This document shows positions 18,167 through 56,345 of a stretch of DNA of 64,000 nucleotides, one piece after another. Position 1 is the stretch's first letter. Each line of letters opens with the position of its first letter. Position numbers and translations under genes: made by a program. Under the pieces are notes generated by a model. That model did not search any database and had not been told where the DNA came from. It worked only from the letters and a program-made list of their open reading frames with translations. The stretch is from a virus (taxonomy: Duplodnaviria > Heunggongvirae > Uroviricota > Caudoviricetes), in the IMG/VR virus record IMGVR_UViG_3300008113_000307, positions 21,919 through 85,918 of that record. One strand, written 5' to 3'.

Positions 18167-18172
18167 TTGATT

Positions 18173-35022: not shown

Positions 35023-35346
35023 ATGGCAAACACACCGTATTTTGACACACCCACGCACTGGCAACCTGAACTTACAAAAATTGTAGACGGGCGCCCAGTG
35101 CGTTTTTCTGACGTGTGTGTGCATGAATTTCGTATAGGCGACGTAGAAGATCCTGCGATTGTTGCAGGTGGTCCCATGTGGGATTGGCAGCAGAGCGAGG
35201 TAGGACAATGGGTGATTGAACATGCAGTGGAAAAACCTTACTGGCACAAGGATCTTGATCCCAGCACCTACGGCTATCGCTTTCGCATAATGGCTCGACT
35301 CAGTGAGCAGGATCAAACTTTTTTTAAACTCAAGTGGAGAAAATAA
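35023..35346 (+). CDS. Hypothetical protein (107 aa)
   Basis: Trp-rich ORF upstream of sugar-modification genes. Confidence 0.45.
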   Translation: MANTPYFDTPTHWQPELTKIVDGRPVRFSDVCVHEFRIGDVEDPAIVAGGPMWDWQQSEVGQWVIEHAVEKPYWHKDLDPSTYGYRFRIMARLSEQDQTFFKLKWRK

Positions 35347-36317
35347 TGGCAAAGTTTTTGGTAACAGGCGGACATGGCCTAATTGGACACAATGTGGTAC
35401 AACGACTGCAGACTCGTGGCGATAGTGTGGCAGTGATGGACACACATACCACATACGGTATCATTCCTCAAGAGGAAATTGATTACTTGGTTGCCGAGCG
35501 GCTCAAAAAGCTAGAGCCCCATGTGTTCTACTGTGATGACATTGTGGATGCTGCTGCTGTGGAATACATCGTGAACAAGGAAAAGCCTCAAGTGTTGATC
35601 CACATGGCCAGCTTTCCTAGACAAAAAGTTGTCAATGCCAATCCTGCTACGGGTGCAGATGTTATGATGAAGGGGTTGATCAATCTTTTGGAGAGTGCCA
35701 AAAAACACGGTGTTGAACGTTTTGTGTACATCTCCAGCAGTATGGTATATGGAGACTTTGAGGATCAGGTACTAGAGGACGACGACTGTGCTCCGCAAGG
35801 ACAATACGGCATAATGAAACTGGCCGGCGAGTGGCTGGTCAAAGATTATGCACGCCGTACAGGTATGGAGTATGTGATTATCCGTCCCAGTGCTGTGTAT
35901 GGACCCTTGGATGTGGAAGATCGTGTGGTGGCCAAGTTCATGATTGCTGCCATGCGTGGAGAAACCCTCCGAGTCAACGGTGCAGGAGAGACCCTGGACT
36001 TTACCTATGTGGATGATGCTGCAGATGGTATTGTGGCGTCGGCCACTCGTATCATGAGCCGCAACAGCACCTACAACATCACCAAGAGTCACAGTGTGAG
36101 CTTGTTGGAAGCTGCAGAAATGATTGTAGAGATCGTGGGCTCAGGCAAGATTGAGGTTTGCGACAAAGACGCAGACTTTCCCAGCCGCGGTGCACTCAAC
36201 ATTGATCGTGCCCGAACCATTCTAGGTTATGATCCCAAGGTGGATGTTCACGAAGGATTTGAAAAGTATTATGAGTGGATCAATAATTCCCTTTACTGGA
36301 ATCCAAAGACAGTATAA
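35346..36317 (+). CDS. NAD-dependent nucleotide-sugar epimerase/dehydratase (SDR family)
   Basis: N-terminal Rossmann motif VTGGHGLIGHNV; about 320 aa. Confidence 0.8.
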   Translation: MAKFLVTGGHGLIGHNVVQRLQTRGDSVAVMDTHTTYGIIPQEEIDYLVAERLKKLEPHVFYCDDIVDAAAVEYIVNKEKPQVLIHMASFPRQKVVNANPATGADVMMKGLINLLESAKKHGVERFVYISSSMVYGDFEDQVLEDDDCAPQGQYGIMKLAGEWLVKDYARRTGMEYVIIRPSAVYGPLDVEDRVVAKFMIAAMRGETLRVNGAGETLDFTYVDDAADGIVASATRIMSRNSTYNITKSHSVSLLEAAEMIVEIVGSGKIEVCDKDADFPSRGALNIDRARTILGYDPKVDVHEGFEKYYEWINNSLYWNPKTV

Positions 36318-37344
36318 CAATCTCCGCGAGGAGATACTGGAAATCACAGACCGTGCACTCAGCACCGGTCAGTTGATGAGCGGCGGATGGACCAATCACT
36401 TTGAGGACTGGCTGGCCTATCGCAATCATGTGCAATATGCAGTGACTTGTCATTCGGGCACACAAGCACTGGAAATCATCGCAGGGTACTATCGAGAACA
36501 ACGTGCAGATCATCCCTCAGTGCTGATTCCAGCCATGACCTACATTGCCACAGCCAATGCTTGGGCCAATGCAGGCTGGCGATTGCACATTGTGGATACT
36601 GATGCTTACGGGCTCATGAATCCTGCAAGTGTGCCCGCATCCCTAGAATTTCAAGCTGTGTGCAATGTAGGGCTGTATGGTGCTGCTGCCACTCAGTGGG
36701 ACGAGCATCACAAACAGTATGTCTTGATTGAGGATGGGGCACAGCATTGGCTGGCAGACAACAGCCAACGTCGTGGTGCTGCTTGTGCCATCAGCTTTGA
36801 TCCCACCAAGAACTTGGCCAACTATGGCAACGGTGGTGCTGTTGTTACCAATCGCATGGATCTGGCCAACTATGCTAGAGACTGGTGCACCAACGGACGT
36901 GACGGATACGGTGCTGAACATGTGACCAACAGCCGCATGAGCGAAGTTGATTGTGCGCAAATGATGATCAAGACCAAGTATATTGATCAATGGCAGCAAC
37001 GTCGCAGAGAGATTGCTGAATACTGGATTGATCAGTTCCAAGATTCCCCTGTCCGTTGCTTGATTGATTCAAGCAATGTTGGACGACACTGTTTTCACAA
37101 GTTTGTGATTGATGTGGATCGACGTGATCAAATGCAGGTACGACTAGCTAATGCCGGTATCAGTACCAAAGTGCATTACACAAGACCCCTGCACGAAGAA
37201 CCCAGGTATATCAACACTCTGGGGCCCAACATGTTGAGTGTGGCCAGTAGCCTGGCCCGCCGTTGTCTAAGTTTGCCTATCTATCCTGAACTAACAGATA
37301 GCGAAGTAGAGCATGTGGCTAGTCAGGTACTAGCCCACGTTTGA
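36271..37344 (+). CDS. DegT/DnrJ/EryC1/StrS-family PLP-dependent sugar aminotransferase
   Basis: N-terminal IPF..QY..L..EI motif and family-typical length; overlaps epimerase stop in another frame. Confidence 0.75.
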   Translation: MSGSIIPFTGIQRQYNNLREEILEITDRALSTGQLMSGGWTNHFEDWLAYRNHVQYAVTCHSGTQALEIIAGYYREQRADHPSVLIPAMTYIATANAWANAGWRLHIVDTDAYGLMNPASVPASLEFQAVCNVGLYGAAATQWDEHHKQYVLIEDGAQHWLADNSQRRGAACAISFDPTKNLANYGNGGAVVTNRMDLANYARDWCTNGRDGYGAEHVTNSRMSEVDCAQMMIKTKYIDQWQQRRREIAEYWIDQFQDSPVRCLIDSSNVGRHCFHKFVIDVDRRDQMQVRLANAGISTKVHYTRPLHEEPRYINTLGPNMLSVASSLARRCLSLPIYPELTDSEVEHVASQVLAHV

Positions 37345-39724
37345 CAAACACATAACTGGCCAGCCACGCCCAGTCATAACTCTTGCGTAGTTGTTCAAAG
37401 TCTCCATTTACTGAATCATAGTATTCTACTGCATCCTCGGCACCCAGCACACTCCATTGCCCGTGTTCCACTATGCCATTGGTATCAGGGTCCAACCATT
37501 GTTTGAGTCTGTATTGACTTTCTACATCTGTGCTGGCACACAATTTGAGCACTTCACGGAAAGCAGTGCGCCAGGCCATCCAGGGAGTATAACTGTAGTA
37601 GGCTGTACCTGACATCATGGGCACAACTTCATGTGCACTGTCCAAGGTAAAGTCTAGTCCGTGTCCTGAATTGGCCAATACCAAGTCCCGGTTGTAGGCA
37701 ATCATGGCTTGGTGCCCATACTCTAATCCATTCACAGGATTACGTGCATGAAAGATATAGTGCTTGGGTTCTTGCATACGATCAGGTTGCCAGTACCAAT
37801 CAAACTCAGGATTCACTGCCAATTTAGCAAACACTGCAAAAAACCAAGGAGTCGTGCTGGCACGGGCTGCTGCATGATATGCTGCCACACGACCATTAAT
37901 GCCATCGACTCGATGCAATTGGTTCGGCCGATAATCCACAGCGCGGCTAACCATACCCCAGTTTGTTTCTGCGTTGGGTTCTCCGTTGCTGATGAACACA
38001 ATGTCTAGAGGTCGGTCGCTGTGTGGTTTTCGTCGAGTTTTGTCAATGTAGGCATAATCATACAACTGTGTGCGAACATGCCCCTGTGCTGTTTTGGGCA
38101 CAATCACTGCACTGGCACCGGTACTGAGCGGCACAATAGTCTTGGTTTCTTGCCGCCACAAGCTCACTGTGGGTAACTCAGCAGGCACATGTTCAACTGT
38201 AAACACGGCCAATGGCCCTGCCCAGTCAGTACGTTTTACAACATCTACGTGTGTATCGTCCTTGTGATATATCACAGGCATGCTACGGCGAGGAACTGAG
38301 ATGCTGGGCACATAGTTAACATCATACCAATCCAGCAGGGCCTTTTTCTCTGCTGACTCGGCAAATGTAGGCACATGCATAAAAAATGTGTCCCCAAACT
38401 TTTGTTCGTTGCTGGCAAACACATGCAGCATTGTGCTCTGCCATGCTTCGGGGTGCCAAGAGAAATCAAATCCTGTGTAGTCGCAGATGCTGCTACACAC
38501 CCATACGTATTCATGTTCCGTGCCAATACTTTTAGCCAAACGTATCAGTGTATCTCGATAGTTGTCAAAGTAGCGCACACGCCGTGTGGTGTTTTTAATT
38601 TTGCCAGCATGTTCATCCAGGTGATCAATTTCATAAATGGCTGTGGCCACACGGGTGGTACGACTTTTGATTTCACTCAGGTACTTGACTTCAGTGGCTC
38701 CGGGTACTGTGTATACTGGCCCGCCTGTCTTCTGGTGTTGCGTAGCAAACTGATAGATGTAGGCAGGTGCACCTGGATCTGGTTGCCAAGAGAAATCAAA
38801 GTCACTGACATCTAGTGTGTCTGGCACAGTCCAATGTTCCAGCGACGGAGTCAACTGAACACGCGGCCAAGTCACATACTTGCGTTCGGTTGCGCCCGGC
38901 ACGCGATATTCTACGGTGGGCATTTTTTCTGCAGGCCACCATTGATTACCAAACACATAGATGTAAGGTGGATCTCCGGGATCTGGCACCCACGAGTAGT
39001 CCCAGTCACAATCAGGTATCACATCGTACCAGAGCCGATTGGGGTTCTTGGGCAGCGTAGCACAGGGAGTGTTCATGTACTTGCGTTCGGTAGCGCCTGG
39101 CACATGATATTCCACAGTGGGCATGACAGTGGCCGAATGCCACTGATTGCCAAACACATAGATGTAGGGCGGATCCATGGGATGTGGACGCCAGGACCAG
39201 TCAAAGCTATCAACATTGACACAGGTTTGCCAGTTGGCAGTGCTGGGCTCTAGCTGTGCTCGCGGTTGTGAAACGTATTTTGGGTCCACTGCGCTTGGCA
39301 CACGATATTCTGGGCCGCCTTGATCATGATAGTTGGTGCCAAACACATACACATAGTCAGGCTCGGTGGGATCTGGATGCCAACTGTAGTCAAACTCAGA
39401 CACCAGGTCACAGTTGTACCAGTGTTCACTGCTGGGCAGTCGCTGTATTACTGGGTCAGCATGATAGTTGGTGTCAGTATAGCCCTCACGGGGCACCAGG
39501 TATGTGCCCGAATCTTTCTGCCACTGACTGGCCCAAGCATGTCGTTGGCCAGCTTGCCACGGTACTGGCTCCCAAAGCCAATCCCAGCCACTGTAGTCCG
39601 ATAAGTAGTTGACCACCCAAAAATAGCGTGTGCGGCAACGGTGGGCAGCATCTTGAATATCCACAGCTGGTTGTTCGTGCACAAACAAGTTTGGCTTTTT
39701 GCCTAGATAAAATACATCAAACAT
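37319..39724 (-). CDS. Large tandem-repeat protein with C-terminal domain homologous to 53195-54154 (putative glycan-modifying enzyme)
   Basis: Six copies of an about 40-aa repeat FD[FW]SWxPDPxxPxYIYVFGN...VPGATE[RV]KY; C-terminal IVFISNGEPNAETNWGMVSRAVD...RVDGINGRVAAYHAAARAS aligns with the N-terminus of the 319-aa protein. Confidence 0.6.
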   Translation of the reverse strand: MFDVFYLGKKPNLFVHEQPAVDIQDAAHRCRTRYFWVVNYLSDYSGWDWLWEPVPWQAGQRHAWASQWQKDSGTYLVPREGYTDTNYHADPVIQRLPSSEHWYNCDLVSEFDYSWHPDPTEPDYVYVFGTNYHDQGGPEYRVPSAVDPKYVSQPRAQLEPSTANWQTCVNVDSFDWSWRPHPMDPPYIYVFGNQWHSATVMPTVEYHVPGATERKYMNTPCATLPKNPNRLWYDVIPDCDWDYSWVPDPGDPPYIYVFGNQWWPAEKMPTVEYRVPGATERKYVTWPRVQLTPSLEHWTVPDTLDVSDFDFSWQPDPGAPAYIYQFATQHQKTGGPVYTVPGATEVKYLSEIKSRTTRVATAIYEIDHLDEHAGKIKNTTRRVRYFDNYRDTLIRLAKSIGTEHEYVWVCSSICDYTGFDFSWHPEAWQSTMLHVFASNEQKFGDTFFMHVPTFAESAEKKALLDWYDVNYVPSISVPRRSMPVIYHKDDTHVDVVKRTDWAGPLAVFTVEHVPAELPTVSLWRQETKTIVPLSTGASAVIVPKTAQGHVRTQLYDYAYIDKTRRKPHSDRPLDIVFISNGEPNAETNWGMVSRAVDYRPNQLHRVDGINGRVAAYHAAARASTTPWFFAVFAKLAVNPEFDWYWQPDRMQEPKHYIFHARNPVNGLEYGHQAMIAYNRDLVLANSGHGLDFTLDSAHEVVPMMSGTAYYSYTPWMAWRTAFREVLKLCASTDVESQYRLKQWLDPDTNGIVEHGQWSVLGAEDAVEYYDSVNGDFEQLRKSYDWAWLASYVFVKRGLVPD
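38875..39175. repeat. Two about 100-nt near-identical direct DNA repeats inside the repeat-protein gene
   Basis: acttgcgttcggt(t/a)gcgcc(c/t)ggcac..gatatt..cacatagatgta(a/g)gg(t/c)ggatc appears twice about 200 nt apart. Confidence 0.6.
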
Positions 39725-40829
39725 GATTAGAATAGACGAGATTTACAACAATACTATTTGGCCTTGGATCAAACATCAGCGACCTGGATTCAGAATGTTC
39801 ATGTGCGACCCGTTTGGTCGAAGTGACCCAGACAGTGTAAAAAACTACGGCGATGATGATATGCACGAACACAATTATATATTCTTTTTTGATCAAGAGC
39901 CAATACATTTGAACATTCACACTGCCACATTCGACGAAGTGCGTAATGCAAGAAATCCTGACTTACACAATCAGTATCAAAATATTGGCGCCATATGCAC
40001 TAGCGAACAAGATTCGGACACTGTGGACGCAGTATGTAAAAAATACAACTGGAAAAGCCTTTATTATTTCTTTCATGGATGGGCAGCGTTGGATTGGTAC
40101 CGAGGATATGATCGCACTTTCCTAATACCGCCATGGCAAGAAAGAAACATTACCAAAACGTTTATTGCTCCCAATCGTATTGTGGCCGGCGAACGTCAAC
40201 ATCGACTAGAAATGCTGTACCATATATTCAAAAACGATATGGTGCACAATCATGTGAGTTGTCCAGCTGTATGCCCTGCCGAAAACATTGCGGTACAAGA
40301 TGCTGTCAAGGCCCTGGCAAACAAATATCCTGATATTGAATCTGTGTTTGCTGCACAAAGCTTGCCTATCAACTTTGCTGGAGAAACTGATCATCCCATG
40401 CATAGCTGTTGGCTGAGTTTGTTTGACCAGAGTGCAGAAAGTTTGTTGTACCTGGTTACAGAAACAGTAGCTGCTGGCCGCAGACATCATCTAACTGAAA
40501 AAACATTCAAGCCCATTGCCCTGGGCATGCCGTTTGTGATTGTAGGCACCCAGGGCAGTCTTGAATATTTGCGCAGTTATGGTTTCCGCACTTTTGAGGG
40601 TATCTGGGACGAGAGTTACGACCAAGCACCTGACAATGTTCGCATTGAGCGTATTGCTAGTTTGTTGCAGAGTCTTGATCAGTTGCCAAAAAAGGCCAAG
40701 CAAGAACTATTTGAAGCTGCACATGAAGTAATCGAACACAACTGGAATCATTTCTACAAAGGTGGATTTGAAGCTGTGCTATGGGCCGAACTAAAGGACA
40801 TGCTGAATGCCATTGAATCTAGTAGCTGA
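39723..40829 (+). CDS. Glycosyltransferase-like protein, TEK-motif paralog
   Basis: HLTEKTFKPIALGMPFVIVG...GFRTFEGIWDESYD; start codon overlaps the start of the divergent minus-strand gene. Confidence 0.4.
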   Translation: MIRIDEIYNNTIWPWIKHQRPGFRMFMCDPFGRSDPDSVKNYGDDDMHEHNYIFFFDQEPIHLNIHTATFDEVRNARNPDLHNQYQNIGAICTSEQDSDTVDAVCKKYNWKSLYYFFHGWAALDWYRGYDRTFLIPPWQERNITKTFIAPNRIVAGERQHRLEMLYHIFKNDMVHNHVSCPAVCPAENIAVQDAVKALANKYPDIESVFAAQSLPINFAGETDHPMHSCWLSLFDQSAESLLYLVTETVAAGRRHHLTEKTFKPIALGMPFVIVGTQGSLEYLRSYGFRTFEGIWDESYDQAPDNVRIERIASLLQSLDQLPKKAKQELFEAAHEVIEHNWNHFYKGGFEAVLWAELKDMLNAIESSS

Positions 40830-41988
40830 TCGTATTGTGAAAGGACGCTTGTATCCGGCACTGACTCAGCACGAAGCCAGACCTTATACACAGGCATGGC
40901 GGGAGTTTGGGCAGCACTACCCTTACACTGTGCCACTGCGACTACAGGAATATTGCGATCATCATGGAGTCAAGCTTGGTGTATTTGGAATAGGCGATGC
41001 ATTTCCCGAGGACTCTTTTTATCCAGTTGGGTTAGCATTTTTTAATTTTGAAATAGACTATTTTGATCTGTTAGCCGGCGCAGTAATACAATTGATCAAA
41101 CGTCAGCAGTTACGGGTTTTATTTTATTATCACGAGGGAGACAATCCTGTTCGTATCAAACAACGTTTAGATTGGTTGGTTAAAAAACATCAACTGCCTG
41201 AACGGTGTTATGTGTTTGTGAGTGCAAACTCAGCTGCAGATGCTATTCCAGGATTTGTGTATTTTGCTGACTTTGAACTGTGGTATTATCAACGAAACAT
41301 TGGGTTGCCTGCATTGCAAATACATTCGAACAATCGTGATAGAGAATTCACAGTGCTGAACCGGCTGCATAAAAGTTGGAGAGCCACAGCAATGGCCGAT
41401 CTCCAGCGCATCGACATACTTGAAAACAGCTATTGGAGTTATTGCGAAACCGGCAACTTAGACTTGGACAATCCCATTGAGTTGGACAGCATACCTGGTC
41501 TTAGAACTGCAACTGAACAATTTCTCAAGCATGCACCTTATGTAAGCGACGACCTAGATCAATCTCGGCGCAATAACCACGCATTGTTGGAGCCTAAATA
41601 TCATGCCAACAGCTACTGCAACATTGTGATGGAGACACATTTTGATGCTGATCAAAGTGGCGGCACATTTTTAACTGAAAAAACATTCAAACCTATCAAG
41701 CACGGTCAGCTGTTTTTTGTTGCAGGACCTGCTGGTAGTTTGGCAGCTCTTAGAGAGTTGGGTTATAGAACGTTTGACTCTGTGTTTGACACAACCTACG
41801 ATACTGTTGTAGACAATACCCAACGCTGGTTGTTACTAAGGCAAGCTATAACACAGGCAAGATCTAGTGTTTCAGATCATTTTAAAAAAGCACAAGCTGA
41901 CATCGAACACAATCAACATTTATTTGTCAGCCACAAGTCGCAGCGTTTAAATACCTTGATCGGAAAAATACATGAGCAACCTCGTTAA
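40807..41988 (+). CDS. Glycosyltransferase-like protein, TEK-motif paralog
   Basis: FLTEKTFKPIKHGQLFFVAG...GYRTFDSVFDTTYD. Confidence 0.4.
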   Translation: MPLNLVADRIVKGRLYPALTQHEARPYTQAWREFGQHYPYTVPLRLQEYCDHHGVKLGVFGIGDAFPEDSFYPVGLAFFNFEIDYFDLLAGAVIQLIKRQQLRVLFYYHEGDNPVRIKQRLDWLVKKHQLPERCYVFVSANSAADAIPGFVYFADFELWYYQRNIGLPALQIHSNNRDREFTVLNRLHKSWRATAMADLQRIDILENSYWSYCETGNLDLDNPIELDSIPGLRTATEQFLKHAPYVSDDLDQSRRNNHALLEPKYHANSYCNIVMETHFDADQSGGTFLTEKTFKPIKHGQLFFVAGPAGSLAALRELGYRTFDSVFDTTYDTVVDNTQRWLLLRQAITQARSSVSDHFKKAQADIEHNQHLFVSHKSQRLNTLIGKIHEQPR

Positions 41989-44493: not shown

Positions 44494-44587
44494 CTATAGA
44501 TAAATGGATCTCGTTTACGTAACTCTTTGAGTTTTTTTCTGTAACGAATTTCTAGAGTGATTCTTGCCCATAGTCGTTTGATCCAGT

Positions 44588-48108: not shown

Positions 48109-49367
48109 TTTAGTGCTTTCAATTCAGGAATTATATCCAAGATGTTTTCGTTACGAATAGCATCGAGCTCGTGTGTACGACGCCAAAATGTATCTATTAG
48201 ATGAGTGTTGTCTGTAGCGTCCATGAATGTGATTGCACTTTCGAATCCTGTAGTAGCGCGGTGCAATGGATCTTGTGGACTTAACCATTCGATATGTTGT
48301 TGAAACTTTTCTTGCAACTGCTGTTTGTATTCAGCCGGTGCAATATCAATTCTATAGTGTGTGGGATCTTGCAAGATGTTTACATTTAGATCTTGTGCAC
48401 GGATAAGACCCTGTTCAACCCAGGTGCGATGAAACTCAGGCAGATGATGTGCATTCATTATACTGAGTGTGGGGCTGATGTAAAAGTCTACCTCAGGACA
48501 CATGGCCATCATGTCTCTACGATTCTGTTCAACCACAGCCCAGTCTGTGCCTTTGCGTATGTATTCAGCACGTGGACCCATATCGTCTAAGCTGGCGCCC
48601 ACTGCAACTGAATCAAACTGTCGCCAGTATTCAAAAACTGACCGGCCTTTTAAGTCAGTATGTGTAAAGTTAGTATTGTAAATCAAGCGTACATCAAAAC
48701 GTTGGCGACGCACCAGTTCATCCAAGATGCGGTAGTGTTCTTCCATCAGCAAGGGCTCGCCACCAGCAAAGTAGATCTGCTCCACATAGTCCAAGTGTGG
48801 TTCTAACTGCGACCACATGTCTGTTTCTGTACGGCCAGCATAGTTCAGCACTGTGTTGCGGGCTTTCCATTCAGGACCTGCCAGCTTGGCTTGATCTTGA
48901 TACCACTGACTGCTGAAGATATGCCCGCAACTGCGACACTTGAGATTGCAGAGATTGCTGAAACGAATATCCCAGTAGGTCATTTCAAACGGATTCTCTT
49001 CCAATTTTTTAATATGATGGCCATGATGCTTGTTTGCACTGCGACGACCACTAAAAAATCCCGACTGTTCTTGTTCGTAGCAACGTGTGCAGGCTGCATG
49101 TGGAGTTTCAGTCAACATGGCTTCACGCAGATCTGTCATAGGCTGGTCCTGCCAAATTTCTTCTAGTGTGTTGGTGCGGCAGTTGCCCACTTGCCCTACA
49201 CCCATTTCGGCATGACAGCAAGGGTATGCCTCACCAGTGGGGTATGCATGCAAGTGAATCCATGGGTAGATGCAGAATGTCTTAGATTCTTTCAGCAGGA
49301 ATTGTTCACGTTCGGTTAGCTCAACCGGATGCACAAGATCACTGCTGTTGTAGTTGTAATTGGTCAT
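48105..49367 (-). CDS. Radical SAM enzyme, paralog 3
   Basis: CNLKCRSCGHIFSSQW, FAGGEPLL; N-terminal CIYPW...PCC. Confidence 0.8.
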   Translation of the reverse strand: MTNYNYNSSDLVHPVELTEREQFLLKESKTFCIYPWIHLHAYPTGEAYPCCHAEMGVGQVGNCRTNTLEEIWQDQPMTDLREAMLTETPHAACTRCYEQEQSGFFSGRRSANKHHGHHIKKLEENPFEMTYWDIRFSNLCNLKCRSCGHIFSSQWYQDQAKLAGPEWKARNTVLNYAGRTETDMWSQLEPHLDYVEQIYFAGGEPLLMEEHYRILDELVRRQRFDVRLIYNTNFTHTDLKGRSVFEYWRQFDSVAVGASLDDMGPRAEYIRKGTDWAVVEQNRRDMMAMCPEVDFYISPTLSIMNAHHLPEFHRTWVEQGLIRAQDLNVNILQDPTHYRIDIAPAEYKQQLQEKFQQHIEWLSPQDPLHRATTGFESAITFMDATDNTHLIDTFWRRTHELDAIRNENILDIIPELKALK

Positions 49368-50865
49368 GCCATGTTTTCATGTTGGGAAACGATGCGGCAA
49401 AATCCTTGCTGCGACGTTGGTCATACTGTGCGTAAAACTTGTGGAAATCGTTGTGCAGCTTGGGCAAGTCAAAAGCTTCCGAGTGCGGAGTTTTGACCAC
49501 ATCTAAGTAATCAATCAAGCGTTGAGTATGGTTGACCTCGTGTTCATGCAAGAAAGGGTTGGCTCGGTTCTTGTACATCCATTCTTGTAGTCGTACACGG
49601 TACTGATCTCGCAACTGATCACTTAACACAAGCGGAGATTGAAAGCTGGGGAATCTCAAGATGTTGAGCGTGAAGTTTACAGCATTACGTCCGTACAGAC
49701 GTTTGAGATCCAGCATGAGATTCAAATGCGGTACTAGAGTGTCCAGGCACAAGGCATTGATTGTGCACATCACGTGCAGGGCCTTGATTCGGCCCGACTT
49801 CAGCAGTGTGTGTACATTTTGCAACCACTGGGTGTAATCAAGGCCATCACGAATGTATTCAGCTTGGACTCCTGTGGCTTCCATACTAGTATACACTTCC
49901 ACATGCGGCAAGGACTCCACTGCTGAAACAAACTCTTGTAGTTTTTCTTGGCTGAATCCCAAGTTTGAATTGATAGCCAACTTGGTAGTACTACGTCCTT
50001 GATTTTGTTTAAACCAGTCAATCAGTTTCCAAGTATGGCCACTCATCAGCGGCTCTCCGCCGGTGATCCTTAGCTCTTGGAGTGTTTTGTGTAGGTCCGT
50101 TTCCCACCACTGGAAGAACGCTTCCACATAAGGATTAGTTTCATTGAAACTATAAAGTTGGCTACTATCATGAGTATGAGTAAAGTGATTCCTGCCGTCA
50201 GAAACCAGTCCAGTGTAGGCACCGTTGACACGTATATCACGAACCCAGGTACTACTAAAAGCAGGATTACAGTATGAACAAGCAAACTGACAAGTACGGT
50301 CAAAAGCGATCTCCAGGGTACGGAGTTCAACGTCCGAATCAGGGCTAGAATTTTTTGCTGCATGCAAAGCCTCTATAGGATAAATTTTTGATTTGTACAC
50401 ACGGTCGCTCACAGCGTCTCGACCCATGTCTTCAATCTTCCAGCAATATTCACAACCGGGTGGTCTTTCACCTTGTCGCATCATATCGCGGTCTAACTTC
50501 TTTTCAGGAGTATTGTGTATAAGCTTGGGATTTTCTTTCAGTAGCTCTACTGATGGTATTTTGTGTGCCGGCGGATGGTGACAGCTTGTGGTTTGCCCAC
50601 TACCAAGCCATATTGTGGCGTTGTACCACTTGGCAGCACAAAAGCTGGAACTCAAGGGGTCTAGTACCTCTTGGCGAAAATCAAGGTCGTTCATTGATGT
50701 GTTTGTGTATAAATTGAGCAAATCGATCAGGAAATTTTTTGCGTACAGATAACCGCATTTCCGCAAGATGTTGCTGATTGTATTTACATACATTATAACA
50801 CGCTGCCAGGAATTGATCAAGATCTTGTTTGCACAAATCTTCAACCACTTGAGCAATACGAGCAA
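49339..50865 (-). CDS. Radical SAM enzyme, paralog 4
   Basis: CQFACSYCNPAFSSTW, ITGGEPLM; N-terminal CAAKW...SC. Confidence 0.8.
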   Translation of the reverse strand: MLVLLKWLKICANKILINSWQRVIMYVNTISNILRKCGYLYAKNFLIDLLNLYTNTSMNDLDFRQEVLDPLSSSFCAAKWYNATIWLGSGQTTSCHHPPAHKIPSVELLKENPKLIHNTPEKKLDRDMMRQGERPPGCEYCWKIEDMGRDAVSDRVYKSKIYPIEALHAAKNSSPDSDVELRTLEIAFDRTCQFACSYCNPAFSSTWVRDIRVNGAYTGLVSDGRNHFTHTHDSSQLYSFNETNPYVEAFFQWWETDLHKTLQELRITGGEPLMSGHTWKLIDWFKQNQGRSTTKLAINSNLGFSQEKLQEFVSAVESLPHVEVYTSMEATGVQAEYIRDGLDYTQWLQNVHTLLKSGRIKALHVMCTINALCLDTLVPHLNLMLDLKRLYGRNAVNFTLNILRFPSFQSPLVLSDQLRDQYRVRLQEWMYKNRANPFLHEHEVNHTQRLIDYLDVVKTPHSEAFDLPKLHNDFHKFYAQYDQRRSKDFAASFPNMKTWHDQLQLQQQ

Positions 50866-51832
50866 TGCGATCTTGACTGTTTTCTATCTGGTCAAAAGAC
50901 TCGTCAATCACGTGACCGAATGTCTGAAAGCCCAGATTGTGCAGGTCTCGATAATACCCGCAATTGGCAGCAACAACAAACGGATGGCCCATTGCAATGG
51001 GTTTCCAAATTTTTTCAGTACGAAAGCTGTGCGGGTATTCAAATACTGTTTCAGTAACTAGACTAAAATAGGTGTCAACGTAAGGTTCGGCCTTGAGATA
51101 TATCTCACCCCAGGTGTTGTCAAACAGTTGATTCTTTACAAAATGATCAGTGGCTGGCTGGTCAATATGTGTTTGATATTGGGCCAACTCGTATTTGGAA
51201 TCAAGATATTTGACCGGGCGTATCAAACGCATTAAATCTTCATCGTTGTGCCATAGCTGAATACGTCGACTTGCTGAGTCTCTTGAGTCAAGGTTGGTCC
51301 ATAAACATTGATCCAACAATCCTGACAACCTAAAGCTTTCCATGAGATATTTTCTATTGGGTCGTTGTCTCCCATTTAAAAACAAAAACTTATAAGGCTT
51401 GTTAGCAGTCGAGTACAAGTTGGCTGCTTGTTCAATTGCAGCTACGTTTTCATGGTAGTCAAGGACTTTGGGCAAAAAGCTGTCGTACTGTAAGCAAGGC
51501 CATTGGGCGTCCATATCTCCGCCACCGATCAACAAGATTTGGCCTTGTTTGATCAGGTCGGCCACTCCCAGCTGCTGGCATTGTCCTTTTAGAGTTTCTG
51601 ATCCTTCGGCTGGATTGCTCAGTATCACATGACAATAATTGGTTTCTACCAAGTGACGTATTTTTTCTACGTTGAGTCGAAACTGCAAGCGGCCTATTAG
51701 GTATATTGCTCCAGGTACAGGATCGTGATTTTCAAAATTCCAAAAATCCTGGTCGCACCAAGGCTCAAGCAAATCATACACTTCACAAAAAGTGTCAAGT
51801 ACTAGCTTATGTGTTCCTAGCATGGTACGCAC
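50681..51832 (-). CDS. Glycosyltransferase-like protein, TEK-motif paralog
   Basis: SFRTEKIWKPIAMGHPFVVAA...GFQTFGHVIDESFD; lies between radical-SAM paralogs 4 and 5. Confidence 0.4.
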   Translation of the reverse strand: MRTMLGTHKLVLDTFCEVYDLLEPWCDQDFWNFENHDPVPGAIYLIGRLQFRLNVEKIRHLVETNYCHVILSNPAEGSETLKGQCQQLGVADLIKQGQILLIGGGDMDAQWPCLQYDSFLPKVLDYHENVAAIEQAANLYSTANKPYKFLFLNGRQRPNRKYLMESFRLSGLLDQCLWTNLDSRDSASRRIQLWHNDEDLMRLIRPVKYLDSKYELAQYQTHIDQPATDHFVKNQLFDNTWGEIYLKAEPYVDTYFSLVTETVFEYPHSFRTEKIWKPIAMGHPFVVAANCGYYRDLHNLGFQTFGHVIDESFDQIENSQDRIARIAQVVEDLCKQDLDQFLAACYNVCKYNQQHLAEMRLSVRKKFPDRFAQFIHKHINERP

Positions 51833-53201
51833 ACTCCTCCCACCATGCCTTCATGTCTGGAAATGTCTTCAGAAAGTTGGTATCACGACGGCGATCGTGC
51901 TCTGAAAAGAATCTGTAAAAGTCGGCCTTGAACACAGCGTGATCTTGACCTTGTGCTGATCGCATCCAGGTTATGTCTCGATCCAGTCTAGATAGTTCGT
52001 AGTCTTTGAATCCTTTGAACGGTTCTTCGGGTGTTTCGATTTGACGCACCATCCACGCCCATACTAATTCTAGTTTTTCAGCGTAACTCTCAGGCAGGAT
52101 CTGTAAACTTTGCCAAGCAGGTGCTCGCAGCACAGGTGTATCAAACCACACACGTTGATATGTGTTGCTGTAGGTTTTTCTCAGACCCAGGATGCCAGCA
52201 AACAATTCAGCCAGAGTGGTCACACTCAGGTTGTTCATGGTCACAATAAAAGTAAGGCTGGAGTAATTGGGTACTTCAGTCAAGAACTGATTGACTCGAT
52301 CCCATAAGAGTTCAAAGTCCATACCGTCACGAATGTACTCGGCCTGCGATCCCCAGGCGTCTAGACTCACATACTGCATGAAGTGTTCAAGGTTGCCCTC
52401 TTGGCACAGTTGCTTGACATATCCCAGGTACTTTTGCCATGACTTCTCATCCACACAAAAGTTTGACGTTACATTAAGATGCAGGTCAGGCTTGGGATTG
52501 GCCAACACATAATCAAATACTCGATAAGTGTTTCGATCCAGCAATGGTTCGCCGCCAGTCATACGGAAATGTTGCAATTGTGGGTACAGGTCAGGCCACC
52601 AAGACCAAAATGCATCTACATAAGGATTATACTCACGACCGGGTATAATGCGGCGATCACCACCAAAGTGATCCATGCTGTTGTGCGGCGTACTAGTGGG
52701 GTATGCTCCGTGTCGGGCCGCTTCATCGGCCCAGCTGCTGCTAAATTGAGGACTACAGTAGCTGCAACGTAGATTACAAGCATTATTAAAATTGACTTCA
52801 ACATAGCTAGGAATAACATCATCTTCAGTTCCCTGTGAGTTTGTAATCTTTTCAAAGTCTACTGTAGCCCAGGGTTCACCTGACCTGTAGTGACGGTCGC
52901 TCAGCTTGTTCTGATCTTCCATGTTCCAGCAGTATTGACATTCTGCCGGTCGTTCGCCAGCCAGCATCATCTGCCGTTGTGCTTTTTTGTGCTCAGTATT
53001 GTGCAACGCACTGGGGTTGCGACCAATGTCTTCAATGTTGATCTTGTGCAAGGGCGGATGATAGCATGAGTTGTTCATGCCAGTCTGCAAGTGAAGGCTC
53101 ACTTGTTTCCACTTGGCCAGACACAATGCAGGTCCAAGTTTGGCCTGCATTTCCTCGGCTGAACTCAAGAACCGGCTTTGATCGCCTTTGGACATTACCA
53201 A
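51807..53201 (-). CDS. Radical SAM enzyme, paralog 5
   Basis: CNLRCSYCSPQFSSSW, MTGGEPLL; N-terminal CLAKW...SC. Confidence 0.8.
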   Translation of the reverse strand: MVMSKGDQSRFLSSAEEMQAKLGPALCLAKWKQVSLHLQTGMNNSCYHPPLHKINIEDIGRNPSALHNTEHKKAQRQMMLAGERPAECQYCWNMEDQNKLSDRHYRSGEPWATVDFEKITNSQGTEDDVIPSYVEVNFNNACNLRCSYCSPQFSSSWADEAARHGAYPTSTPHNSMDHFGGDRRIIPGREYNPYVDAFWSWWPDLYPQLQHFRMTGGEPLLDRNTYRVFDYVLANPKPDLHLNVTSNFCVDEKSWQKYLGYVKQLCQEGNLEHFMQYVSLDAWGSQAEYIRDGMDFELLWDRVNQFLTEVPNYSSLTFIVTMNNLSVTTLAELFAGILGLRKTYSNTYQRVWFDTPVLRAPAWQSLQILPESYAEKLELVWAWMVRQIETPEEPFKGFKDYELSRLDRDITWMRSAQGQDHAVFKADFYRFFSEHDRRRDTNFLKTFPDMKAWWEECAYHARNT

Positions 53202-54154
53202 CCTTCCCGCTTGCGGATCACATCTATTTCTCTTGTCATGATGCCTTGATTGTGCCAGTCGCTGCGATAATGCTGTTTGAAGAAACGGCTTTGTTCTGCT
53301 TCAAAAATTGCAACAGGTAAGCCCAGTTGATTGCCTAGATCTAGCCCGAGTAAATTGCTGATATATCTAGGCTCTGAATCTTTTACAGTAAGCCATAGTT
53401 CGGCCAATGCATCAAAGTCTTGTACCAGTCGATGATCCCATGCTGTCAGCATAGTCATGTAAGTACCTTGTCGGGCACCAGCAATGGCCCATTCTCCATA
53501 CTTTGCATCTGTGCCGATGTTGTGCCAGATAGTCAAATGATCAAGATTTCTTTTGTGTACTCGATCTTGAAATTCTTCTAAACTTGGCTTTCGGCCTCGG
53601 TCCAAACACATCTTGACACCTTCGCGGAATCCTGCACGCCATGCTTGAAACGCCGAGCCATTGGGGTGTGTGGTTGAGTAGCAGTCATGCATAGCCCAGT
53701 ATAGTGGATCAAAACAAAACTCTACTTCGGTTTCTGTGCGACCGTCAGTGGCTTCGTGAGTACGCATGTTTTGAACAAATGTTCGAGTCCACGAGCTTAG
53801 TCCACCATTGCCGTACATGAGTCCGTTTACTGCATTACGTGCACGCCAACGAAACACTGCCTGTTCATACTCAGGTGTGGAGAATGTCAGAGTTTGATTA
53901 AAAAAGGCAGGATCAGGAAGATTATCCCCATCAATCAAAATAAAACGCTCAGTTGTGCTAGCTTCGGCTGCAGCTTTGTGTGCGGAATCCGATCCTTTAA
54001 CTCCGTCTACACGTCGGGCCCAAGGTACCATGTTTTTGATTTGTGCCCAGGTTTCTTCCTTGTTGGGCTCATCGTAGCTGAGATAAATGCAGTCTAGATC
54101 TGCAATGTCAATTTGATTCATATGTTTTCTTTTTCCAACGTTGTCCTTGATCAA
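53195..54154 (-). CDS. Putative glycosyl/sugar transferase (DxD-like ILIDGDN), homolog of repeat-protein C-terminus
   Basis: [33 protein letters not shown]...[18 protein letters not shown]. Confidence 0.45.
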
Positions 54155-54446
54155 CGGCTACTATACTGACATCCCCAAGATGACACAGTGTGCCTGATTC
54201 AGAAGGTGTGAGCTTGTGAGCAACTTGCCAGGTCAGTTCTACCAGTTGTCCATTACGAACTCTTACACTCGAGTTGGCTCTTGTGTATTGTTCATGGTTA
54301 ATTTCTATGTATGTACCTGGCAGATCTTCCATGCTGTAAAATAGCGGAACTCCTGATTCATCGTGATACAGTCGATAAAACACTGGTTTAGATTCGGTAG
54401 TAGAGTGTAGTATGCTCCAAAATTCTTCTGGAGTCATGGTTGCCAC
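54108..54446 (-). CDS. Hypothetical protein (112 aa)
   Basis: Overlapping ORF in the minus-strand operon. Confidence 0.4.
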
Positions 54447-55192
54447 GCTTTCTCACAATAATGAAACGCACCCCACTGGGCCACAGTTTGTATTCTCAAT
54501 GGATCAGTTTCCCATACCAATTCCTGTGTCCAGTTTTCAGTTTGAGTACCAGCATGATGTCGTTTCATGTGCACAATCTGCGGCGACCCAGGCACAGTCA
54601 CACGCTCTACACCCATAATTTGTGCCGCCATGGCATACACCAAGTCAGTATCTGGTTGGTCAGGAGAAAACTTGATCAAAGTTCTGTATTGTGTCCAATG
54701 TGCAAATATATTTTTGATCAATCCAAAAAACTCCTTAGCAGTGTTGCTAAGTCTCCAGTATGTGATAGCATTATATACATCAGGCAAGTGATTGTTGTCA
54801 AACAGTCGGCGATATTGCCGTGCAGTGCTCTCTTGGTCTTGCCAGGTTCTGCAACCTGTGCTCAACACAACGTCACGAAGTCTAAAACAGGTCCACCAGT
54901 GTTCAATAGAGCTGGCAATCAACATGTCTGCTTCTAGCTTGATGGTTTCACGAAACGGACTCAGCTTGAACAGTTGGGCATCGTTGGCATAAGGATTCTC
55001 AATATTGGGTGCCAACTGTTGTACATGGTCAAACACAGGATCCTGGATTGCTTGATCTGTGACCAAGCATACCCTTGCGTGAGGGACATGTTGTTTGAGA
55101 CTTTGACTCAAGCGGCGAGCACAAGCCACATAGTCAGTGTCGTTGGTATTCACAGCCATGATCACATAGCCTTGTGGCTCAAGAGTTGGCAA
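54434..55192 (-). CDS. GT-A fold glycosyltransferase (GT8-like)
   Basis: N-terminal [24 protein letters not shown] nucleotide-sugar-binding-like block. Confidence 0.45.
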
Positions 55193-55988
55193 TCATGTTC
55201 TCCAGGTGTTGTTTGCACATCACATGCATGTCTATACCGTTGAATGCCAAATACTTGGGTCGATCGTGATTGTCTTGGTAAGTCACTTCGTACATGTCAG
55301 ATTCAACCTGTGTGATTGTGTGCCCAGGTAGTACAGCTAGTAAAGTCCAAGGAATTGAATCTACAGACTGTGTGTGGCCTGACACTATGCCCAAGGCAAT
55401 GCTCAAGGCATAGTCGTTGCGATAAGTGGGTCGGTCAATATGATACAGATCTCGATAGTGCGACCAGTTGAGTCGCACCATGTTCATGCAATCAAAAATG
55501 TATTCAGCAGTAGAGGATCGACGAAACATCATGACTGTGGCCCAATACATGGGCATGGCAGGATGTCCAAACCAGTTGTTGCCTTGATAAAAATTGTGAT
55601 CTCCGTCGACGCTGCTGGACCAACGGTGACAGGCAAACGCCTGTGGCATGGCCAGCACCTTCTTTAGTTCGTCTCCTGCTACCACATAGTCAGCATCTAG
55701 TACCAGTGTCTGATCCCAGGGTGACAAGGCATATGCATCCACACGACCTGCATTGTACCAGGTCACAGAGTGTCCGATATCGCCAAAATATCTAGTGCCA
55801 CCTGATTCAGCACCGGCGGTGATTACTACATCAAAATTAGTTTTGACCAGGTCATGTTCAGGCACGTTGGTTACCACAGCTACCGGAATGCCAAGATGTC
55901 GACGGATGTTGGCAGCACTCCAGGCTGCCATACGCACATAGTCTGTGTGTTCGTTGTTGAAGGCAAAAATAAGTGCGCCAGTGGTCAT
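55179..55988 (-). CDS. GT-A fold glycosyltransferase (GT8-like), paralog of 54434
   Basis: ALIFAFNNEHTDYVRMAAWSAANIRRHL and DxD-like VLDADYVV. Confidence 0.45.
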   Translation of the reverse strand: MTTGALIFAFNNEHTDYVRMAAWSAANIRRHLGIPVAVVTNVPEHDLVKTNFDVVITAGAESGGTRYFGDIGHSVTWYNAGRVDAYALSPWDQTLVLDADYVVAGDELKKVLAMPQAFACHRWSSSVDGDHNFYQGNNWFGHPAMPMYWATVMMFRRSSTAEYIFDCMNMVRLNWSHYRDLYHIDRPTYRNDYALSIALGIVSGHTQSVDSIPWTLLAVLPGHTITQVESDMYEVTYQDNHDRPKYLAFNGIDMHVMCKQHLENMIANS

Positions 55989-56290
55989 CGTCGTTGATTG
56001 ATTTGATCGTGCTCTACCAACCAGGCGTTCATTTGTTCTTGCCAGCGTTGTTGACTCAGAGCATATAACTCTTTGGTATCTACTTGCACTGGGTTCTCAT
56101 ACAAGTCTAGTAGTACTGCTTCTACACCAGGACAAGTCAGCAGCGTTGTTTGTAATTCAGGACCTGCTCGAAACATGCCGCCGCGATAGGCAAACAACAT
56201 TCGAGCAGAGTATTTTTCTTTCAGCACACGACGGGCGGCCACATGATCAAATCTGGCTCGTGCATGAGCAACTAAATCTTCAGTATTCAT
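55985..56290 (-). CDS. Hypothetical protein (101 aa)
   Basis: First gene of the minus-strand glycan operon. Confidence 0.4.
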   Translation of the reverse strand: MNTEDLVAHARARFDHVAARRVLKEKYSARMLFAYRGGMFRAGPELQTTLLTCPGVEAVLLDLYENPVQVDTKELYALSQQRWQEQMNAWLVEHDQINQRR

Positions 56291-56320
56291 GTGTGTATTG
56301 TACAGCAGACTGCTGCAAAA

Positions 56321-56345
56321 GTAAAGGGCCTGGTGGCCCTTTTGG
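56321..56345 (-). terminator. Hairpin terminator between structural gene and glycan operon
   Basis: aaagggcc-tggt-ggcccttt with flanking A/T runs on both strands. Confidence 0.4.

Follow-up and report, generated by a model that had tools for sequence, protein, structure and literature searches.

We identified a set of 19 sugar-modification genes spanning ~21 kb in an analyzed stretch of viral DNA of 64,000 nucleotides (hereafter the window; gene set at 35.3–56.3 kb), and the combined evidence supports a glycan-related module at this locus. We propose, with a probability of about one half, that the module makes and modifies an unusual glycan within the cytoplasm of the host and that the favored acceptor is a phage-made protein. 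The carrier is an uncultured jumbo myovirus with related contigs up to ~350 kb. A preliminary description of this DNA had placed the cluster at 35346–56290; its genes were confirmed at their coordinates, with families checked by profile and structure searches. Comparative searches detected 238 relatives, and in all 80 of the IMG/VR loci fetched the module was present with its gene order kept and under purifying selection.

Gene content and organization of the module

The plus-strand arm, which has a thymidylate synthase gene (ThyX) directly upstream, opens with an NDP-sugar 4,6-dehydratase/epimerase-like SDR of 327 aa (35334–36317, plus strand; alternative start ATG at 35346) matching the Pfam families PF01370 Epimerase (3e-43) and PF16363 (3e-35). 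Its top NCBIfam match, dTDP-glucose 4,6-dehydratase, is full length at 132 bits and under that model’s cutoff. The overlapping DegT/DnrJ/EryC1 PLP sugar aminotransferase of 371 aa (36229–37344, plus strand; Pfam PF01041, 7e-54) probably starts slightly downstream of 36229, and its top NCBIfam matches are PseC and other 4-amino-4,6-dideoxy-sugar transaminases, all under their cutoffs. An AGAT/StrB1-type amidinotransferase of 346 aa (41972–43012, plus strand) has no Pfam match; phmmer against PDB sequences recovered AGAT (1e-17), StrB1 (9e-15), HsvA (2.5e-13), and SxtG (8e-12), with which the C-terminal catalytic Cys and His align. The last gene of the minus-strand operon encodes a NodU/CmcH-type carbamoyltransferase of 494 aa (43009–44493, minus strand) with both Pfam domains over cutoff (PF16861, 2e-47; PF02543, 6e-35) and 32% identity to its counterpart in an Azospirillum polysaccharide locus. 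All four enzymes had been named beforehand, and the Pfam or PDB sequence matches bear those calls out.

Three proteins, not the four described earlier, form a paralogous family marked by a TEK motif: 368 aa (39723–40829, plus strand), 393 aa (40807–41988, plus strand), and 383 aa (50681–51832, minus strand), related to one another by blastp and alignment. A 351 aa ORF was rejected as a fourth member, lacking both the TEK motif and any paralog detectable by blastp. Structure searches with a TEK model returned a GT-B glycosyltransferase fold, with T4 DNA glucosyltransferases as top fold matches, and the TEK proteins are predicted to be GT-B glycosyltransferases. A UDP-glucose/GDP-mannose dehydrogenase domain is present as a fusion partner in one viral TEK homolog. 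The closest known systems include GT10 alpha-1,3-fucosyltransferases (FUT9, H. pylori FucT) and GT47 exostosins, to which identity is 8–13%; neither Pfam GT10 nor GT47 matched even at E ≤ 10, and a 13-sequence TEK profile found no match among PDB sequences. The TEK gene count varies from one to seven per locus among the 80 IMG/VR loci.

The DxD proteins may also contribute to sugar transfer. A 319 aa protein with the DxD motif ‘IDGDN’ (53195–54154, minus strand; 72–79% conserved in relatives) is possibly GT-A-like, given that motif and a weak Pfam Glyco_tranf_2_3 match (E 0.03); searches against PDB sequences returned nothing informative. It is paralogous to the C-terminal domain of an 801 aa protein (37319–39724, minus strand; blastp 28% identity, 4.5e-16), in which alignment places ‘VFAKL’ at the DxD position. 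The 801 aa protein, without Pfam or PHROG match, also contains five ~65 aa repeats with the consensus [FWY]D[FWY]SW.PDP..P.YIYVFGNQ (residues ~47–375). A 252 aa putative glycosyltransferase with an ‘LEADM’ motif (54434–55192, minus strand; phrog_1903 of unknown function, 7e-12; no PDB match) and its 269 aa paralog with the DxD motif ‘LDADY’ (55179–55988, minus strand; blastp 3.7e-9) had been called GT-A enzymes of GT8 type. That label was not retained: the pair share a (D/E)AD motif, have no Pfam match, and align to a real phage GT8 with an hhalign probability of 0.4%. The 351 aa protein (44588–45643, minus strand), 68–70% conserved in relatives and without match in Pfam, NCBIfam, or PHROGs, accompanies the carbamoyltransferase wherever the latter was seen in the IMG/VR loci. 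Two small proteins complete the set, one of 112 aa (54108–54446, minus strand), found in most related loci, and one of 101 aa (55985–56290, minus strand), 68–70% conserved in relatives and encoded by the first gene of the minus-strand operon.

This operon lies on the same strand as, and immediately after, two structural-type genes encoding a Thr/Ala/Gly-rich protein of 321 aa with 20.9% Thr (56346–57311, minus strand) and a tail-fiber-like protein of 569 aa (57324–59033, minus strand). The latter has weak PHROG matches to tail fiber phrog_19602 (2.5e-5) and virion structural phrog_14394 (6e-9). Between the Thr-rich gene stop and the 101 aa gene start (56297–56342, minus strand) lies a hairpin (56323–56342) and then a promoter-like TTTACT-17-TACAAT (56325–56297). 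The hairpin had been read as a terminator ending the cluster; it is real, but with the genes on the minus strand it closes the upstream Thr-rich gene, lies ahead of both the promoter-like site and the opening gene of the cluster, and so marks the operon start. Of the 80 related loci, 52 have the Thr-rich protein upstream of the cluster; for the remaining 28, the flank that was fetched stops within the cluster. The cluster is directly downstream of the Thr-rich and tail-fiber genes in every locus whose flank reaches there, so the position first seen in the window is conserved in relatives.

The radical-SAM paralogs and their bacterial family

All five radical-SAM proteins are full-length matches to NCBIfam NF033640 (N_Twi_rSAM, N-terminal twitch domain radical SAM), scoring 291–395 bits (E 1e-86 to 1e-118), far above chance and against a membership cutoff of 170 bits. 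All are on the minus strand: A, 432 aa (45618–46916; 291 bits, E 1.5e-86); B, 403 aa (46897–48108; 346.8 bits, E 1.8e-103); C, 420 aa (48105–49367); D, 451 aa (49339–50694; 299.9 bits); and E, 464 aa (51807–53201; 322.3 bits, E 4.7e-96). In B, Pfam places SPASM at residues 9–78, preceding Radical_SAM at 119–275. The five had been described as consecutive and 400–510 aa long. Five are present, but the 383 aa TEK gene separates the fourth from the fifth, and the 508 aa ORF, which mechanically reaches 50865, was over-extended, its likely start giving the 451 aa of protein D, as in relatives.

An alignment of the five paralogs shows no variation at four N-terminal Cys or in CxxxCxxC, SS, and GGEP. 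Across 48 phage and bacterial NF033640 members, the latter three motifs and all of these N-terminal Cys but the first are invariant, the first being conserved in at least 90%. The motifs within the signature CxxxCxxCxxxxSSxW proposed earlier are real, although one paralog has SSQF in place of SSxW. The five are old paralogs, with mutual identities of 19–32% (D and E, 32%). Each is under strong purifying selection, with pN of 0.10–0.26 against saturated pS of 0.70–0.87 (for A versus relatives, 0.16–0.21 and 0.77–0.87). The 80 IMG/VR loci hold five to eight radical-SAM genes each, consisting of a constant five-gene core plus extra paralogs.

The evidence supports the view that these are not housekeeping cofactor or tRNA-modification enzymes: the profile search assigns them to NF033640, whose inspected bacterial members lie in polysaccharide loci. 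Since we found no functional or biochemical study of any NF033640 member in the literature, the substrate class is assigned through guilt by association. Bacterial members lie in polysaccharide loci in eight of eight contexts inspected, beside GT2/GT4 genes, Wzm/Wzt transporters, NDP-sugar enzymes, carbamoyltransferases, and DegT, and fusions to GT4 (4 of 120) and CBM_4_9 (3 of 120) occur among the homologs listed. These contexts and fusions support sugar-directed chemistry by the radical-SAM enzymes of the cluster. Bacterial and phage loci share the N-terminal auxiliary-cluster Cys domain followed by CxxxCxxC, SS, and GGEP, and tandem arrays (up to four in bacteria) with glycosyltransferases, carbamoyltransferase, and DegT. 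In contrast, the phage set is without transporter, lipid-carrier, or membrane genes, and the partners of its radical-SAM genes come from the unannotated TEK GT-B family, not from GT2/GT4. The sugar-acting twitch enzymes BlsE, BtrN, and AbmM, plus DesII/AprD4, are among the closest known systems.

Assembly, acceptor, and alternative products

None of the cluster proteins contains a membrane-like segment, and profile searches found no flippase, polymerase, ABC transporter, or priming phosphoglycosyltransferase in the cluster; glycan assembly is therefore probably cytoplasmic. A nucleotidyltransferase is also absent from the cluster. Based on family assignments, the SDR and DegT enzymes would make an NDP-amino-deoxy sugar from an NDP-hexose of the host, and the amidinotransferase and carbamoyltransferase would add guanidino/amidino and carbamoyl groups. 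Fold and motifs suggest that the three TEK enzymes, possibly with the DxD proteins, would transfer sugars into an oligosaccharide. The five radical-SAM enzymes may then carry out 5′-deoxyadenosyl radical chemistry on sugar residues, probably on the growing glycan, with epimerization, oxidation, and deoxygenation as candidate reactions.

The acceptor could be a virion protein, DNA, or a host glycan, and we favor the first, most plausibly the adjacent Thr-rich protein, a candidate acceptor, or the tail fibers. The preliminary reading of a virion or host-surface glycan holds for the glycan-related module, while attachment to virion proteins and host remodeling stay candidates. Virus-encoded virion glycosylation is known from mycobacteriophage capsids and tails and from chlorovirus and mimivirus glycan gene clusters, which similarly involve viral glycosyltransferases and amino-sugar genes beside structural genes and cytoplasmic assembly without host export. 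We know of no described case with radical-SAM, amidinotransferase, or TEK-type GT-B enzymes.

It is doubtful that the module instead remodels the host surface, by altering the nucleotide-sugar pool or feeding modified sugars to host O-antigen or capsule machinery, with a superinfection block or an altered cell surface as possible outcomes. The bacterial radical-SAM and carbamoyltransferase homologs do reside in exported-polysaccharide loci with Wzm/Wzt, and the varying TEK complement resembles serotype-like diversification. However, the cluster lacks the export, polymerization, priming, and membrane proteins named above, and a set of this size beside fiber genes in an apparently lytic large myovirus would be atypical for seroconversion.

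The TEK match to T4 DNA glucosyltransferases makes DNA glycosylation a live rival, in which a tailored oligosaccharide on a modified base would evade restriction or CRISPR. Every cluster enzyme is soluble and ThyX is directly upstream, yet we consider this reading unlikely. The window contains neither a ThyA-family hydroxylase/hydroxymethylase nor a nucleotide kinase; ThyX belongs to another family and is not, to our knowledge, a maker of hydroxylated pyrimidines. The main operon is moreover co-oriented with, and just downstream of, structural genes. The likeness is to RB69/DLP3 (poly-arabinosylated 5-hydroxycytosine) and RL38J1 (hexosylated cytosines), whose DNA-glycosylation clusters, like the window, pair several soluble GT-B enzymes with phage NDP-sugar tailoring genes (PMC13326640). 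A ThyA-family 5-hydroxy-dCMP synthase and nucleotide kinase are central to those clusters, whereas the window has only ThyX. They also lack the radical-SAM enzymes, amidinotransferase, and carbamoyltransferase of the window; the terms radical SAM, carbamoyl, and amidino do not occur in that paper (PMC13326640).

Peptides or proteins are frequent substrates of SPASM/twitch enzymes, and the closest folds of the radical-SAM proteins include anSME, SkfB, CteB, and SuiB. They might accordingly be maturases that cross-link or epimerize a phage protein apart from the sugar genes, with the Thr-rich protein or the small conserved 101 and 112 aa products of the operon as candidate targets. This is highly unlikely, as bacterial members lie in glycan rather than RiPP loci, some fused to GT4 or CBM, and the cluster showed neither a Cys-rich/repeat precursor-like ORF nor a RiPP recognition element, protease, or exporter. 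Least probable is a diffusible aminoglycoside-like molecule: amidinotransferase, carbamoyltransferase, DegT, dehydratase, glycosyltransferases, and twitch radical-SAM enzymes are streptomycin/tobramycin/butirosin enzyme types, the amidinotransferase matches StrB1 (9e-15), and fold neighbors of the radical-SAM proteins include BlsE, DesII, AprD4, and BtrN, but searches of the cluster ORFs recovered no cyclitol-forming enzyme (2-deoxy-scyllo-inosose or inositol-phosphate synthase), resistance gene, or exporter, and the bacterial contexts are polysaccharide loci.

Radical-SAM clusters in other phages

The preliminary description knew of no comparable fivefold radical-SAM expansion in a phage glycosylation locus, but this claim of uniqueness proved overstated. 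Close relatives carry up to eight copies, bacteria have tandem arrays of four, and a T4-like marine viral genome has 12 radical-SAM genes (PMC5332604). Vibrio phages K566/K567 (~255 kb), likewise large myoviruses, encode four N_Twi_rSAM proteins within 7 kb interleaved with glycosyltransferases, which in K566 comprise two GT8 genes and one GT4-like gene. Their cluster proteins are only 20–26% identical to those of the window, the partners of their radical-SAM genes are GT8 and GT4-like instead of TEK, and tblastn/phmmer found no amidinotransferase, carbamoyltransferase, SDR, or DegT homologs in the fetched K566/K567 stretches. The annotation of the K566/K567 cluster genes does not go beyond radical SAM or hypothetical. 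Phage nt-1, a straboviral Mylasvirus related to K566/K567, carries one N_Twi_rSAM copy.

Radical SAM paralogs of the NF033640 family

The five radical SAM paralogs of the cluster (A to E; 432, 403, 420, 451 and 464 aa) fall within NF033640 (N_Twi_rSAM), the NCBIfam family named 'twitch domain-containing radical SAM protein', scoring 291, 346.8, 395.4, 299.9 and 322.3 bits over profile positions ~1 to 397/398 against a curated cutoff of 170 bits. Every other radical SAM equivalog (MoaA, QueE, viperin, anSME-like enzymes, peptide maturases) reached only 15–35 bits on the five, against cutoffs of 180–650. We therefore rejected assignment to standard cofactor or tRNA-modification enzymes, the outcome that the preliminary description had named as telling against its reading.

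The CxxxCxxC and GGEP motifs are invariant (C134/C138/C141 and G205-G206-E207-P208 in the 432-aa paralog), as are four N-terminal cysteines and an SS pair in the alignment of all five. When 48 phage and bacterial sequences were aligned, three of the four N-terminal cysteines, CxxxCxxC, SS and GGEP remained invariant, with the first cysteine present in at least 90%. Pfam SPASM matched residues 9–97, ahead of Radical_SAM, in three paralogs, and the family is predicted from its sequence to carry a Cys-rich, twitch/SPASM-like auxiliary-cluster domain N-terminal to the radical SAM core, the reverse of the usual order. The N-terminal 'C..PW..CC' motif reported previously is real and is explained by such a domain.

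These are old paralogs. They form subgroups A/B/C and D/E. We rejected recent tandem duplication, since identity among them is only 19–32% and relatives encode a separate conserved ortholog of every paralog. Five members are indeed present as first described, but their run is interrupted by TEK383, one of the putative glycosyltransferases named for their TEK motif, and the 508-aa radical SAM ORF was over-extended (paralog D is 451 aa). Sequence and profile searches of the PDB with the radical SAM proteins were empty or uninformative, and literature searches returned nothing relevant on N-terminal twitch radical SAM enzymes or NF033640, or on radical SAM enzymes with glycosyltransferases in jumbo phages or polysaccharide loci. 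Since no paper on NF033640 was found, we argue its function from genomic context.

Organization, enzymes and conservation of the cluster

Four transcription units were read from a mechanical ORF map. An SDR and a DegT gene (35334–37344, plus strand) follow ThyX (34310–35002; PF02511, 4e-41); a gene for an 801-aa repeat protein (39724–37319) lies on the minus strand; TEK368, TEK393 and an amidinotransferase gene (39723–43012) lie on the plus strand; and a long operon (56290–43009) occupies the minus strand. In order of transcription the operon encodes proteins of 101, 269, 252 and 112 aa, a 319-aa DxD protein, radical SAM E, TEK383, radical SAMs D, C, B and A, a 351-aa protein and a carbamoyltransferase. 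It shares its strand with the genes for a Thr-rich protein (56346–57311; 20.9% Thr) and a tail fibre, and starts directly downstream of both. A hairpin at 56323–56342, previously taken as the end of the cluster, instead follows the Thr-rich stop codon on the minus strand, ahead of a promoter-like TTTACT-17-TACAAT and then the opening gene of the cluster, and thus marks the 5' boundary of the operon. At 39723/39724 the start codons of the divergent 801-aa and TEK368 genes overlap with zero intergenic space, so each promoter must sit within the coding sequence of the other gene; relatives give identical gene calls here.

Several products resemble sugar-tailoring enzymes. The SDR matched Pfam Epimerase (3e-43), and its best NCBIfam model was dTDP-glucose 4,6-dehydratase, full length and under cutoff. 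The DegT protein (Pfam, 7e-54) was best matched by PseC and other 4-amino-4,6-dideoxy-sugar transaminases. Both Carbam_trans_N (121.7 bits, cutoff 24) and Carbam_trans_C (161.3 bits, cutoff 27) exceeded their Pfam gathering scores in the carbamoyltransferase; its 131.8 bits with the NodU equivalog fall well short of the 1000-bit cutoff, so this enzyme is not NodU itself. Pfam reported no family for the 346-aa amidinotransferase, which phmmer matched in the PDB to AGAT (1e-17) and StrB1 (9e-15) in three stretches, and also to HsvA and SxtG. Its 'GGISCCT' aligned with 'GGFHCWT' at the catalytic Cys, and its 'GHGDAVF' with 'PHIDATF' at the His.

Three TEK proteins exist rather than the four first proposed, the 351-aa protein being unrelated. 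The family had no sequence match in Pfam, PHROG, NCBIfam or the PDB. The modelled structure has two Rossmann-like domains and matches solved GT-B enzymes, the nearest being T4 DNA glucosyltransferases, and we consider the TEK proteins putative GT-B glycosyltransferases on this basis. The family has an invariant Arg and, within a 'TEKxxKP' motif, a Glu-Lys pair that may correspond to the GT10 donor-binding residues at the level of sequence motif. Clustered at 50% identity, the TEK representatives recovered by a full HMMER scan numbered 13,565 at E<1e-3 and 10,495 at E<1e-10, and BFVD contained many homologs from uncultured tailed phages and one from a mimivirus. Searching 50,697 deposited phage genomes by tblastn detected none. 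A UDP-glucose/GDP-mannose dehydrogenase domain is fused to one phage homolog, and a scan of long TEK-family proteins found no fused Pfam domains. The GT8 likeness attributed earlier to the 252- and 269-aa proteins found no support: neither had a Pfam match, hhalign to the GT8 protein of Vibrio phage K566 gave a probability of 0.4%, and just a (D/E)AD motif is shared. Sequence and profile searches of the PDB were empty or uninformative for this pair and for the 319-aa family.

When the cluster and window positions 1–25 kb were searched at the nucleotide level against 50,697 phage records, no relative emerged. The sole match, ~100 bp at 4897–5016 with 87–94% identity to Acinetobacter T4-like phages, probably reflects similarity of the tRNA region. 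The exact 420-aa protein is present on several JGI metagenome contigs, and homologs with 84–94% identity number thousands, on contigs up to ~352 kb; IMGVR_UViG_3300023184_000024 and 3300034104_005687 are examples of complete relatives of ~350 kb. Four diverged relatives (loci L005/L006, L009 and L010) encode an ortholog of each radical SAM at 65–87% identity, with 0.10–0.26 non-synonymous differences per site against saturated synonymous values of 0.70–0.87.

Scanning IMG/VR with paralog C placed relatives on 238 viral contigs, and we analysed 80 loci. Exactly five radical SAM genes in the order E-D-C-B-A were found in 55 of the 80; among the remainder, several are cut short and have four, and others have six, seven or eight through extra full-length divergent paralogs (20–41% identical). 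In some relatives, extra copies lie 3' of the carbamoyltransferase or inside the core (L069, 8571–11400; L070, 17094–19900; L052; L092), with recurrent insertion points between the DxD protein and radical SAM E and between radical SAMs B and A. Within the fetched flanks, TEK genes numbered from one to seven. Wherever the flank reaches them, the carbamoyltransferase and 351-aa protein co-occur; the amidinotransferase is frequent and not universal. In 52 of the 80 loci the Thr-rich gene is upstream, and the remaining 28 have a fetched flank that stops inside the cluster. Because five radical SAM genes are constant while TEK number varies, we regard the five-fold set as the stable core of a module with diversifying glycosyltransferases, which suggests glycan structures that may diversify in a manner analogous to serotypes. 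The cluster first described is thus real, uncharacterised and conserved across relatives. Some metagenome contigs have broken or truncated orthologs of radical SAMs B and A (for example 316+53 aa, or 369 versus 403 aa; L001, 11260–12379; L003, 11112–12164; L005, 11359–12468 and 15427–16296, compare L006), with near-identical contigs intact; these could be assembly frameshifts or real variation.

Genomic contexts, proposed pathway and alternatives

Two plasmid-borne bacterial NF033640 homologs both lie in polysaccharide loci. The phage carbamoyltransferase has a 32% identical counterpart in the Azospirillum locus, which also encodes a nucleotide-sugar dehydrogenase, epimerases, FkbM methyltransferases and a glycosyltransferase; the Methylomagnum locus encodes a GT2, two GT4, a GT39, AsnB and an ABC transporter. 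Of six further bacterial contexts, one combines Wzm/Wzt, including Wzt_C, with many GT2/GT4 genes and polysaccharide deacetylases, and another an RmlA/C/D-like set and GT2. A third has four tandem paralogs along with GT2, Gly_transf_sug and UbiA; a fourth, two tandem copies along with GT4 and AsnB; a fifth, an ABC transporter and a carbamoyltransferase; and the sixth, two copies along with Caps_synth, UbiA and two DegT genes. Starting from the Methylomagnum protein, a homology search recovered 611 sequences at E<1e-10; of the 120 matches listed, four carry a fused GT4 domain and three a fused carbohydrate-binding module, CBM_4_9. A UbiA-family prenyltransferase repeatedly adjoins the bacterial genes (L014, L017, L100 and L102), together with Gly_transf_sug in the last three, an adjacency that may point to a lipid-linked glycan pathway, unlike the arrangement in the phage.

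Isolated phages encode NF033640 proteins only rarely. In Vibrio phages K566 and K567, four copies fit within 7 kb, and two Pfam GT8 genes and a GT4-like gene are interleaved with them; a single copy occurs in phage nt-1 and two in Ralstonia phage RsoM2USA, the latter in contexts annotated entirely as 'hypothetical'. A T4-like marine viral genome is reported to carry 12 radical SAM genes (PMC5332604). Together with the four tandem bacterial copies, these cases show that the preliminary description overstated its claim of an unparalleled expansion; its glycan reading is reasonably supported by the NF033640 contexts and fusions and by the sugar enzymes.

We propose that a host NDP-hexose may be dehydrated and transaminated, that the amino sugar or glycan would be amidinated and carbamoylated, that the TEK enzymes, possibly with the DxD proteins, would build an oligosaccharide, and that the radical SAM enzymes would tailor its sugar residues. 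Pfam found no priming transferase, flippase, polymerase or transporter in the cluster, and no cluster protein contains a 19-residue window of hydrophobicity above 1.6, so this chemistry is most likely cytoplasmic. Virion proteins are favoured as the acceptor since the operon is co-oriented with, and directly follows, the Thr-rich and tail-fibre genes.

The strongest alternative is that the cluster decorates phage DNA. Phage DNA poly-glycosylation clusters with several GT-B enzymes and NDP-sugar genes are established (PMC13326640), and the modelled TEK fold most closely resembles the T4 DNA glucosyltransferases. Their hallmarks, however, are a ThyA-family hydroxylase and a kinase (PMC13326640), and the larger window ORFs scanned include ThyX alone, with neither a ThyA homolog nor a kinase among them; the RB69/DLP3-type pairing of a ThyA-family hydroxy(methyl)pyrimidine synthase and a nucleotide kinase beside glycosyltransferases was thus not found within the window. 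Remodelling of the host surface would agree with the bacterial contexts, but the cluster lacks export and lipid-carrier genes, Pfam detecting in it no priming phosphoglycosyltransferase, Wzx/Wzy or Wzm/Wzt of the kind that mark O-antigen, capsule or EPS loci. Peptide maturation by the radical SAM enzymes would suit their SPASM neighbourhood and is at odds with the genomic contexts of the family. An aminoglycoside-like small molecule would match the enzyme types but not the absence of a cyclitol synthase, Pfam and NCBIfam finding neither a 2-deoxy-scyllo-inosose nor an inositol-phosphate synthase among the cluster ORFs.

Returning to a virion glycan, we tentatively suggest, at a probability of roughly 0.3, that NF033640 may represent a new enzyme class that tailors at the glycan level by radical chemistry, one enzyme per glycosyl-transfer step, and that this lineage might combine five to eight such enzymes with a very large, unannotated GT-B family and so make, on virion fibres (or DNA), a radically tailored glycan bearing guanidino and carbamoyl groups. 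To our knowledge, no viral glycosylation chemistry of this kind has been described. If so, it would open a first way into the function of a named radical SAM family on which we found no functional study, recurrent in bacterial polysaccharide loci and sometimes glycosyltransferase-fused, and likewise of a GT-B-like family of ~10,500 clusters (50% identity, E<1e-10) outside Pfam, PHROG and NCBIfam models. An environmental jumbo-phage lineage widespread in metagenomes would then devote ~21 kb beside its fibre genes to elaborate glycan chemistry, an investment relevant to host recognition, virion stability or defence evasion.

Phage lineage and other window genes

The MoxR-like AAA ATPase (25867–27006, plus strand; phrog_1297, 2e-97) shares 49% identity with its counterpart in Pseudomonas jumbo phage PA5oct and 40–46% with those of Phosso and Atu_ph07, and as judged by this protein the phage is placed near their group, which makes freshwater Proteobacteria the first candidate hosts. 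This identity, 31 tRNA genes for most amino acids (667–11888, ARAGORN) and contigs up to ~352 kb point to an uncultured jumbo myovirus, from samples that, going by their JGI identifiers, are probably freshwater lakes. Two cluster versions occur on 183- and 148-kb contigs of one MAG, Haliscomenobacter sp. EUL_031 (L009, NZ_JBBAKG010000001.1; L010, NZ_JBBAKG010000003.1). These were the only contigs returned by a scan of genome contigs. They represent distinct phage genomes that were probably mis-binned; we rejected them as host evidence, and the MAG is at most a weak host hint.

Other plus-strand genes include a truncated peptide chain release factor-like gene within the tRNA array (11134–11676; 180 aa; PCRF end and RF-1 domain, 1.8e-16), a DUF2201 metallopeptidase/VWA protein (29251–30471; phrog_1314, 1e-103), an SPFH/Band 7 protein (31560–32444; 9e-33), an HD_4 domain protein (18149–18676; 1.3e-16) and a weakly matched dual-specificity phosphatase-like ORF (14430–14936). 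Adjacent AhpC/TSA peroxiredoxin (1.8e-20) and CMD/AhpD-like (2e-9) genes (12508–13613, plus strand) form a predicted phage-borne peroxide-detoxification pair. A 417-aa ORF matching TctA, the large membrane subunit of a tripartite tricarboxylate transporter (23450–24703, plus strand; 1.3e-33), is unusual phage cargo.
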